Assembly (NCBI GenBank): GCA_951813565.1
Contig: OX638351.1
Span: forward strand, 320,001 to 384,000
Source: an uncultured Poribacteria bacterium
GTDB taxonomy: Bacteria; Poribacteria; WGA-4E; WGA-3G
Direction: 5' to 3'
DNA length: 64,000 nucleotides
Shown: piece after piece, positions 39,944 to 41,539 of the stretch
Layout of the letters: every line of letters starts with the position of its first letter
Position numbering within the stretch: the stretch's first letter is position 1
Notes under the pieces: generated by a model
What the model saw: only the letters and a program-made list of their open reading frames with translations
The model's database searches: none
Told to the model about the DNA's origin: nothing
Made by a program: the position numbers and the translations under genes

Positions 39944-41539
39944 TTACTTAGCAGTCGCAGTAAATCCTGCAGTTTTAATTACGTCCGCGAGTTCGTCAAC
40001 CTTAACACTGTTTTTCCGAACCTTAATAATTGCTTGGTCGGGTAAAGAAACTTCAGCGCTAATAACGTTTTGGTGCTTTGTAAGTGCATCCTGCACTTTT
40101 GCAACGCAAGCTCCTCACGTCATACCTGTTACTGTTAAAGTTACATCCTCGCTTGCAGTCGTTTCAATTGGCACGGACATGAAGATGTTCAATTGCTTGC
40201 CAGAATTTGCGCCAAATATACGGATTTTTCCGTCGAAACCACCCGTGGCGAGTTGCGTGCCATCGGGGTGAAATGCAAGTGCAAAAACGCCAACGGTGTC
40301 TCCTTGCATAGATAAAAGCCGTTTTCCATCTACTACGTTATAAATTCGTGCTTCCCCTGAAGAACTACCGACAGCAAATTTGCTCCCATCTACTGAAAAC
40401 GCTACCGCATCAATTGAACCCGACTGCGCTTCATAAGCCTTGATGAGATTGAAATCTGTGTTGCCAACGTCCCTACGGGTTTGACGGAACATTCTGTAAA
40501 GTCGCGGAATGCGATCTTCTCCCACGCTCAAAACTTGGTCAGCCTTCGGGTGCCGCGCAATAGCGTTAATTTCTCCGTAACCTTTGTTGCTTGAGTTAAC
40601 ATCATCTACAAACGAACCCGTATCTACTTCAACCAATTTGAGTGCTGTATCACGACTGCAACTGACAAAATGCGAACCGTCAGTAGAAAAAACTGTGCCA
40701 AAAACCCAGTCGCCATGATTGTCAAATCGGACAAGTTCTTTTTCATCTGTGATAGAGATTACGCGCACCGTTTTATCTGAGGTTCCAAAAGCAATACGAC
40801 TGGCATCAGGTGAGAAAGAGAGTCCATAGATCGTATCATAAGTGGAACGAATAGATTTGATAAGTTTATTTGTAGCAGTGTCCCACAACTGAACCTCGCC
40901 AAATTGTGCGGGGGAACCGCCTGCTATACCAAGTATTTTTCCACCATCAGCATATACAATAGATTGAATACGACGCGCTTTTCCAACCAATCGTGCTTTG
41001 AGTGCAAAACTCTTTGAGTCATACAGCAAAACCTCATTGACACCGGACACTGCAAGTGTGCTTCCATCGGGAGAGTAAGCCATAGCAGAAACTACGGGAG
41101 GCACTGTATAACTTGGATATTCTCCGTTTGTTTCGTCTGCTTCTGCAGGTGTATCGTCTTTTGCACCTTCAAGAATCCAACGTGTGAATAGGTTAATTTC
41201 TTCGGCGGTGAGCGGTTCTTGGTTCTGCGGCATTGCAGGCGGGTCACCCGAAATTAGTTCAATAATGAGACTCTCATCCGGTTTGCCAGGGATGATTGCT
41301 TCTCCTGCCATTCCACCTCGCTTGAGTTCAGCATAAGATGTCACTATCAGGTCAGCATTTGGATCACCGGGATGATGGCATCCTTGACAACTCCGTTTGA
41401 GGATCGGGACAATCTGTTTGTGGTAACTCACTGGTTCTTTTTCCCCATGATTGTCTGCCGCTGCAAACGGACTCCACACAACAGAATAGATCAGAAAAAT
41501 CGAGAAAATACATATAAACTTTAATATTGATATTTTCAT
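39944..41539 (-). CDS. Planctomycete cytochrome c + WD40 + HMA domain protein, predicted selenoprotein (UGA at 40115-40117)
   Basis: CQGCH, WD40 blades; the frame continues past TGA as VTGMT-U-GACVAKVQDAL...DVIKTAGFTATAK to TAA 39944-39946, abutting the sulfatase ATG. Confidence 0.85.
40075..40114 (-). promoter_or_regulatory. Putative bacterial SECIS element
   Basis: mRNA UGA-GGAGCUUGCGUUGCAA-AAGUGCA-GGA-UGCACUU-ACAAAGC; perfect 7-bp stem (40082-40098), apical G about 24 nt after UGA. Confidence 0.7.

Follow-up and report, generated by a model that had tools for sequence, protein, structure and literature searches.

Selenocysteine (Sec) at the metal site of a heavy-metal-associated (HMA) domain is already known from a family of UxxC P-type ATPases, listed in the tables of three papers (PMC9312934, PMC13188914 and PMC1976440), and from selenoproteins described by curated family models. 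The gene considered here places such a site on a protein of another kind. It lies at 39944..41539 on the minus strand of a 64,000-nucleotide stretch from an uncultured Poribacteria bacterium (GenBank contig OX638351.1, positions 320,001 to 384,000; hereafter the window), and reading its in-frame UGA as Sec gives a protein of 531 residues, in which an N-terminal haem c domain (PSCyt1) and a WD40 β-propeller precede a C-terminal HMA domain with the motif GMT-U-G-A-C. The presence of this feature at these coordinates is confirmed. The Sec machinery, orthologs with TGA or Cys at the codon and purifying selection beyond it all speak, at the level of sequence, for a genuine selenoprotein, as had been claimed from the letters of the window alone (the sequence-only reading). 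We hold with high confidence that the gene is systematically mis-annotated, the public calls ending 57 residues short.

In the UxxC P-type ATPases, as in this gene, Sec stands for the first Cys of the HMA motif, and the SECIS element (selenocysteine insertion sequence) necessarily lies inside the HMA coding region. There, however, the HMA domain forms the cytoplasmic N-terminus, whereas in the window an exported haem c-WD40 protein carries it at the C-terminal end; no P-type ATPase domain was found in a Pfam scan of the protein, which falls outside TIGR01525. Among the best NCBIfam matches of the C-terminal domain is NF041115 (‘UxxU_metal_bind’), which shares the HMA fold and a Sec at the metal site, but the score (35.6 bits) is well below the cut-off of 95 and the motif is UxxC, not UxxU, so that the protein is not a member. 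NF045683 (MerT/CopZ fusion-like heavy metal transport selenoprotein) likewise describes an HMA-fold selenoprotein with Sec at the metal site. The proteins of these two families are small and stand-alone or fused to MerT, whereas the domain in the window is carried by a 531-residue protein. MerP is a periplasmic mercury-binding protein and CopZ a cytoplasmic copper chaperone; both (TIGR02052 and NF033795) have the same ferredoxin-like HMA fold and a GMTCxxC-type loop, and MerP also resembles this protein in its predicted periplasmic location. Scores against these models remain below their cut-offs (31.4 versus 92.55 bits for MerP, 37.1 versus 91 bits for CopZ), Sec replaces Cys, and the domain is fused to a cytochrome-propeller chain. 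Nor is the gene a MerP by context, as there is no mer or cop operon around it, its neighbours being a sulfatase, PSCyt2-PSD1, DUF1501 and a transposase.

The remainder of the chain belongs with the PVC (Planctomycetes–Verrucomicrobia–Chlamydiae)-type PSCyt1-(WD40)-PSCyt2-PSD1 proteins found with DUF1501 (PF07635, PF07583, PF07587 and PF07394): haem domain and propeller are homologous, and PSCyt2-PSD1 and DUF1501 are encoded downstream. Unlike the fused chains of that type, the module in the window is a separate polypeptide with a terminal HMA domain. Fusion of a Sec-HMA domain to PSCyt1-WD40 was not found in the literature searched, which took in selenoproteome reviews in their main text; that of PMC13188914 has no occurrence of PF00403, PF07635, WD40, propeller or Poribacter, and PMC9312934 has none of WD40 or Planctomyc. 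The architecture had been described as unrecognised in the sequence-only reading, which holds for the fusion and not for Sec within an HMA domain, already catalogued. What appears to be new, judging from these comparisons, is the attachment of such a site to a protein that combines PSCyt1 haem c with a WD40 propeller.

A UGA codon at an HMA ligand position

Under translation table 11, the open reading frame (40115..41539, minus strand) comprises 474 residues, the last being ...VTLTVTGMT, and is followed by TGA. Past this codon the frame stays open for 56 further codons (GACVAKVQDAL...FTATAK; residues 476–531, which include the stretches VQDALTK and HQNVISAEVSLPDQAIIK) up to a TAA at 39946..39944, which is included in the full coding sequence (39944..41539, minus strand) obtained by translating TGA as U. 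The ATG of a sulfatase gene follows directly at 39943. Comparison of TGA and Cys across loci identifies the UGA (codon 475; 40115..40117, minus strand) as the first ligand position of GMT-U-G-A-C, the second being Cys478 (40106..40108, minus strand). Coordinates and sequence thus agree with the sequence-only reading, in which the stop fell on the first Cys of the HMA motif, the frame continued beyond it and the TAA adjoined the sulfatase start. The truncation by standard annotation expected there is also seen: all 120 public homologs listed end early, at 446–494 residues and with at most 89% coverage.

The read-through protein was searched against 121 genomes of the phylum (E ≤ 1e-50). Ninety-two genomes matched, and in 82 of these exactly one TGA lay inside the match, which reached to about residue 529–531; these 82 are the window's own genome, 80 of the 81 other genomes of its family, and one genome of family f4. 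The match was stop-free in 10 of the 92, and 29 of the 121 genomes had no match at this threshold; the window's genus, with 31 genomes besides the window's own, contributes one of these. A TGA shared in this way is not a private nonsense mutation. Fifty loci were fetched and the codon was read directly. TGA occupies the same codon, within GM(T/M)-U-xxC, in 41 of 41 Sec-form loci (39 from the window's family, f1, and 2 from f4); one of the f4 loci had first been scored as stop-free, its match having ended before a longer linker. In a sister family (f3), all five loci (L043–L047) have TGT or TGC at this codon, in the motif GM[T/S]CGAC, and four of the 50 loci end after the propeller and lack the HMA domain. 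The search for orthologs with TGA or TGY at the site, suggested with the original observation, therefore returned both kinds.

Sec-form (f1, f4) and Cys-form (f3) proteins are about 57% identical, and the HMA domain is 48% identical to that of the Cys ortholog. In a quick, midpoint-rooted tree of 50 rows with the HMA region left out, the Sec forms fall into two clades (f1 and f4) and the Cys forms into one (f3, support 100). A change from Sec to Cys in f3 is only suggested by this sequence tree, the deeper forks of which are not settled. The Cys forms were missed by a word-based protein search with residues 440–531, whose 15 matches were only truncated family members and one Cu-ATPase, and an exact look-up of two Cys-form translations in the protein collection found neither, the chosen start codons possibly differing from the called ones.

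Purifying selection extends past the TGA. By the method of Nei and Gojobori, applied to 39 f1 sequences (741 pairs, from which those with saturated or very small dS were dropped), the ratio of nonsynonymous to synonymous substitution rates (dN/dS) is 0.123 over the 53 codons that follow the TGA (usable pairs, 679 of 741) and 0.106 when the codons of the hairpin described below are omitted (535 of 741), compared with 0.087 over the 60 codons before it (483 of 741), a block that was taken ungapped and in which a few rows may be misaligned.

The region around the codon matches the Pfam HMA profile (PF00403) over residues 467–526 and profile positions 1–61 of 62, with 35.6 bits against a cut-off of 24.8. 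An AlphaFold2 model built on an alignment of 39 sequences (mean predicted local distance difference test (pLDDT) 79.1, predicted template modelling score 0.76) shows the βαββαβ topology of the fold (strand 463–471, helix 476–488, strands 492–498 and 502–508, helix 514–523, strand 527–530) at a pLDDT of ~88–93, with U475 placed just ahead of helix 1. U475 and C478 are invariant in the same alignment. Taken together, profile and model delimit a MerP/CopZ-like domain of residues 463–531 (39947..40153, minus strand). Its first strand (463–471) precedes the TGA, so that the domain straddles the codon and a stop after residue 474 would split it. The 56 codons after the TGA had been taken for a complete HMA domain; the identity of the domain is upheld, its completeness is not.

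Selenocysteine machinery and a candidate SECIS element

Each of the four components proposed as a check, selA, selB, selC and selD, is present in the window's genome, a single contig of 5.43 Mb (C1). SelA scores 525 bits. The selB gene (C1:5209221-5211116; 344 bits, above the cut-off) adjoins a gene for tRNA-SeC(tca) on the same strand (C1:5209004-5209097), and selD (C1:4610940-4611866, minus strand; 372 bits) has one in-frame TGA at the canonical ...KCAG-U-ASK... site and thus encodes a SelD that itself contains Sec. The absence of Sec machinery, named beforehand as a finding that would speak against the selenoprotein, does not apply. Earlier work reports an enrichment of SelA and SelB in bins of sponge symbionts (PMC5649159) and names Poribacteria in connection with Sec variants of group 4 [NiFe] hydrogenases (PMC13582414). 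SelA was also found, with at least 496 bits, in 10 of 10 genomes tested from the Cys-form, f4 and HMA-less groups, five of five Cys-form genomes among them; loss of the machinery thus does not account for the Cys form.

Bacterial SECIS elements, as sought by bSECISearch, are stem-loops shortly 3′ of the UGA with a G in the apical loop. The hairpin AAGUGCA-GGA-UGCACUU (40082..40098, minus strand) has this form, with a stem of 7 bp spanning nucleotides 17–33 after the UGA and the loop GGA at nucleotides 24–26. An apical G about 24 nucleotides downstream had been noted in the sequence-only reading; the first G of the loop is the 24th nucleotide, and the hairpin folds. RNAalifold, applied to the 60 nucleotides from the UGA in 41 Sec forms, returned a single helix of 7 bp (columns 20–26 and 30–36, loop columns 27–29). 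The structure forms in all 41 sequences (−6.2 to −9.9 kcal/mol), and five of its seven pairs never vary. Synonymous diversity at codons +6 to +12 (AAA GTG CAG GAT GCA CTT ACA) is 0.06, 0, 0, 0.05, 0, 0.22 and 0.16, compared with 0.4–0.7 at four-fold sites nearby. This window of seven codons has the lowest synonymous diversity of all 493 in the gene (0.07, with a mean of 0.48 across the gene); the nine lowest-ranking windows all overlap it.

Further support for the candidate comes from paralogs in the same genome, which has four HMA matches: this gene, a CopA-like gene with a Cys frame of 789 residues, and two tandem small genes with one TGA each. The tandem genes encode lipoproteins of 127 residues (C1:4462974..4462594, minus strand; GMT-U-GSC) and 132 residues (C1:4462419..4462024, minus strand; GMT-U-GNC), and carry GUGCAGGAUGCAC and GUGCAGUCUGCAC, respectively, exactly 21 nucleotides after their TGA. 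The shared core, GTGCA-NNN-TGCAC, occurs 14 times genome-wide with both strands counted; three of these occurrences follow the in-frame TGA of a GMT-U-GxC motif at the same offset, and a fourth is the opposite strand of one of the palindromes. No structure was found at the equivalent place in the Cys-type HMA domain of the CopA-like gene (0.0 kcal/mol; n = 1). The HMA domains of the lipoproteins are 45% and 43% identical to that of the window protein. Their best NCBIfam match is NF041115 (53 and 50 bits, below the cut-off of 95). The lipoproteins differ from the window protein in being short, lipobox-anchored and equipped with a low-complexity linker, and in having neither haem domain nor propeller.

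Several observations weigh against this interpretation of the hairpin, or limit it. Covariation is weak, with a compensatory change in only one of the seven pairs, and the hairpin is backed by invariance instead. The surrounding 76-nucleotide region folds no better than shuffled sequences (z = −0.92), a comparison that was dropped as evidence; with fold energy unexceptional, support comes from conservation. No Rfam family reached threshold in a scan of 39900..40250 at E ≤ 10, where the only hit was a chance match to a long non-coding RNA. An apical loop of three nucleotides is at the small end for bacterial SECIS elements. No comparable hairpin is present in the minimum-energy fold after the UGA of the genome's own selD, so that a genome-wide SECIS consensus could not be defined. 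Among the Cys forms, the hairpin is lost in two of five (−0.3 kcal/mol), but the other three keep a weaker alternative in the same place (−5.4 to −6.3 kcal/mol), and part of the pairing potential therefore comes with the V-Q-x-A-L peptide. The contrast between Sec and Cys forms is thus real but not absolute. Finally, selenium insertion and expression of the protein are predictions. As a separate observation, the weak hairpin of the Cys forms (GUGC-AGAAC-GCGC type) may be either a relic of a SECIS element or a product of the conserved V-Q-x-A-L peptide.

Decoding and chemistry of codon 475

By analogy with the established bacterial pathway, UGA-475 is very probably decoded as Sec by SelB, with GTP and Sec-tRNA(Sec), at the hairpin. 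The SelB–GTP–Sec-tRNA(Sec) complex would be recruited by the GGA-loop hairpin, which starts 17 nucleotides past the UGA and lies within the codons of helix 1 (K-V-Q-D-A-L). A single exported product of 531 residues would result, made up of a signal peptide, a mono-haem PSCyt1 domain, a seven-bladed WD40 propeller and the Sec-HMA domain (GMT-U475-G-A-C478). HMA domains usually bind Cu(I) or Hg(II)-like metals. Membership of this family tips the balance modestly towards a periplasmic domain whose U-x-x-C site would bind a soft metal ion, the selenolate/thiolate pair holding the metal on a protein that also bears haem. With Sec in place of Cys, the metal might be captured more tightly or faster, or the redox potential might be lower, and the protein may work together with the products of the downstream PSCyt2-PSD1, DUF1501 and PPC genes. 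Two observations count against this functional proposal: Pfam scans of the neighbourhood found no copper or mercury genes beside the gene, and the haem domain is poorly modelled (pLDDT 31–37 over residues 50–80), although poor modelling of the haem region (50–107) is expected of a model that lacks the cofactor.

The same residues might instead form a redox centre, U475-x-x-C478 acting as the selenenylsulfide of a thiol/selenol oxidoreductase that the haem would feed. The review PMC9312934 presents most bacterial selenoproteins as redox proteins that have UxxC or CxxU motifs, the protein has a haem c of its own, and metal-homeostasis genes are missing from its immediate surroundings. Set against these points are the fold and the motif, which are those of a known metal-binding family (HMA, GMTCxxC); the closest curated models, which are CopZ, MerP and ‘metal-binding (seleno)protein’; and the catalogued Sec-HMA proteins, which sit in metal transporters. 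On this evidence a redox centre is rather unlikely, if a serious competitor to the metal site.

Less probable still is a selenium-dependent switch with two outputs, in which the full-length protein is made when Sec-tRNA is available and a functional form of 474 residues when selenium is scarce. The existence of HMA-less orthologs, which are presumably functional, would fit such a scheme, as would a recoding efficiency that in bacteria is generally below 100%. Truncation at the UGA, however, would leave a 12-residue orphan strand plus GMT, and the extension is under selection no weaker than that acting on the rest of the protein.

Readthrough of the UGA in which an ordinary tRNA, be it a near-cognate one for Trp or Cys or a suppressor, takes the place of Sec-tRNA(Sec) is very improbable. 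The slight covariation of the hairpin leaves some room for it; but the genome has complete Sec machinery including a Sec-containing SelD, the codon aligns with a metal-ligand Cys in a classic Sec/Cys exchange, and a constrained hairpin lies at SECIS distance and is common to two other UxxC genes. Moreover, TGA has kept its role as a stop codon here: a second TGA is the gene's own terminator in 5 of the 41 Sec-form loci, which shows that the codon has not been reassigned in these organisms, and an alternative genetic code with TGA as Trp was rejected on this ground and on the presence of the Sec machinery.

That the TGA is a true stop, giving a 474-residue product followed by 56 codons that represent a lost domain in decay, a sequencing error or a private nonsense mutation, is scarcely credible: every public call among the 120 homologs listed does end there, and distant homologs of 450–480 residues end just past the propeller without an HMA domain, but the same TGA recurs in 82 genomes with Cys at the codon in orthologs, dN/dS beyond it is 0.12 with no further stop before the normal terminator, and termination would orphan the first HMA strand.

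Domain context, gene neighbourhood and implications

Ahead of the HMA domain, decoding of codon 475 as Sec would complete a chain whose other parts correspond to the 531-residue, secreted haem c, β-propeller and Sec-HMA protein envisaged at the outset: signal peptide, PSCyt1, WD40 and HMA were all found. The hydrophobic N-terminus (MKISILKF...SPFAAAD) is a probable signal peptide of about residues 1–28 (41456..41539, minus strand; cleavage site presumed), modelled as a helix at residues 2–22, and would carry the protein into the periplasm, a requirement for attachment of c-type haem. The Planctomycete cytochrome c domain PSCyt1 (PF07635; 35.3 bits, threshold 22) spans residues 51–104 (41228..41389, minus strand) and begins with the haem motif C51-Q-G-C54-H55 (41375..41389, minus strand). 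All 39 aligned sequences have C51, C54, H55 and M103, the last being a candidate axial ligand; profile, CxxCH motif and hydrophobic N-terminus together identify a c-type cytochrome domain with predicted haem attachment. Pfam WD40 families, the AlphaFold2 model and Foldseek agree on a seven-bladed propeller of about residues 150–460 (40160..41092, minus strand), the strands of which (153–454) are modelled at high pLDDT. The best Foldseek matches in the PDB are seven-bladed WD40 propellers (7bie_A, E 4.8e-24; 5yzv, E ~1e-23), and this search returned generic WD40 propellers only, with no functional lead.

Downstream on the same strand follow, in this order, the sulfatase (38477..39943, minus strand; Pfam Sulfatase, 172.6 bits), whose ATG abuts the TAA, two small open reading frames, a conserved PSCyt2-PSD1 gene (DUF1549/DUF1553; 829 residues, 34469..36958, minus strand), a DUF1501 gene (PF07394, 348.8 bits; 482 residues, 32959..34407, minus strand), the third of the cluster, and, as the fourth, a gene for a PPC-domain protein (PF04151; 830 residues, 30002..32494, minus strand). 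Of 50 loci, 31 have a sulfatase downstream in the same orientation, and no Cys-form locus is among them. It was considered as a functional partner and rejected, being absent beside the Cys forms; an insertion within one family is the better reading, probably into an older cluster. In the short flanking sequence available for the 50 loci, PSCyt2-PSD1 is the next gene downstream in 13, namely all five Cys loci, both f4 Sec loci, one HMA-less locus and five f1 loci. In genomes G015 (f3, Cys) and G063 (f4, Sec), the gene is directly followed by PSCyt2-PSD1 (852 and 828 residues), DUF1501 (481 and 481) and PPC (853 and 781).

An exhaustive search of representative proteins, dominated by WD40 repeat proteins, yielded many PSCyt1-WD40 relatives of 450–590 residues that end after the propeller, and none of the 150 best representatives aligns past query residue 502. 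Among the long homologs that match at the N-terminus, five of the six tested carry PSCyt2 and PSD1 farther along the same chain (P0139, P0145, P0194, P0207 and P0217; 1,246–1,957 residues), and the sixth, a record of 640 residues, breaks off at the apparent start of PSCyt2. Synteny and fused relatives together indicate that the window protein is the N-terminal module, with a gene of its own, of a PSCyt1-WD40/PSCyt2-PSD1 system. By the same sequence comparisons, the Sec-HMA domain appears as an addition at the split point between PSCyt1-WD40 and PSCyt2-PSD1 in this order of bacteria, and cooperation with the haem and with PSCyt2-PSD1 and DUF1501 is suggested. A more specific proposal, that this lineage-specific insertion at the junction passes a soft metal or chalcogen to the haem and its partners, or takes electrons from them, is speculative and rather improbable.

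Other features of the window lie farther from the gene. About 1 kb upstream is a DDE transposase (DDE_Tnp_1_3, 228.6 bits; 42610..43551, minus strand); among 50 related loci it was found at the window's own and nowhere else, and it is therefore a recent insertion next to the promoter region. Beside it, a 275-residue open reading frame (43596..44423, minus strand) gives a partial match to the N-terminal part of STT3 oligosaccharyltransferase (42.5 bits) and is perhaps a fragment. Two WD40 propeller proteins of 335 and 670 residues (44503..45510 and 50977..52989, both minus strand) have no PSCyt1 or HMA match in the Pfam scan. Beyond the cluster, at 27211..28909 (minus strand), is a split cytochrome b pair in a b6-type arrangement, a Cytochrome_B N-terminal protein (257 residues) followed by a petD-like Cytochrom_B_C protein (288 residues).

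For annotation, the consequence is that a gene kept in at least 82 genomes is nevertheless cut short in all 120 public records listed: some 170 nucleotides of coding sequence are wrongly treated as intergenic, and counts of selenoproteins or HMA proteins in such genomes come out too low. The short list of Sec-HMA proteins gains an exported protein that carries haem together with a Sec metal ligand. Sec is used by three of the four HMA domains of this genome, and this suggests that the lineage relies on selenium by default as the ligand for handling soft metals in the periplasm. The Sec forms of f1 and f4 and the Cys forms of f3, with the Sec machinery kept throughout, offer a clean pair for asking what Sec adds at a metal site. 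The PSCyt2-PSD1-type families are among the largest of unknown function in PVC-type and sponge-symbiont genomes, and a chemically interpretable domain is now tied to the PSCyt1/PSCyt2/PSD1/DUF1501 system. Should the Sec-HMA domain indeed exchange metal or electrons with the haem and its partners, it would provide the first chemical clue to the function of PSCyt, PSD1 and DUF1501 proteins, pointing to a periplasmic metal or redox machine and not to a structural or carbohydrate-binding role.

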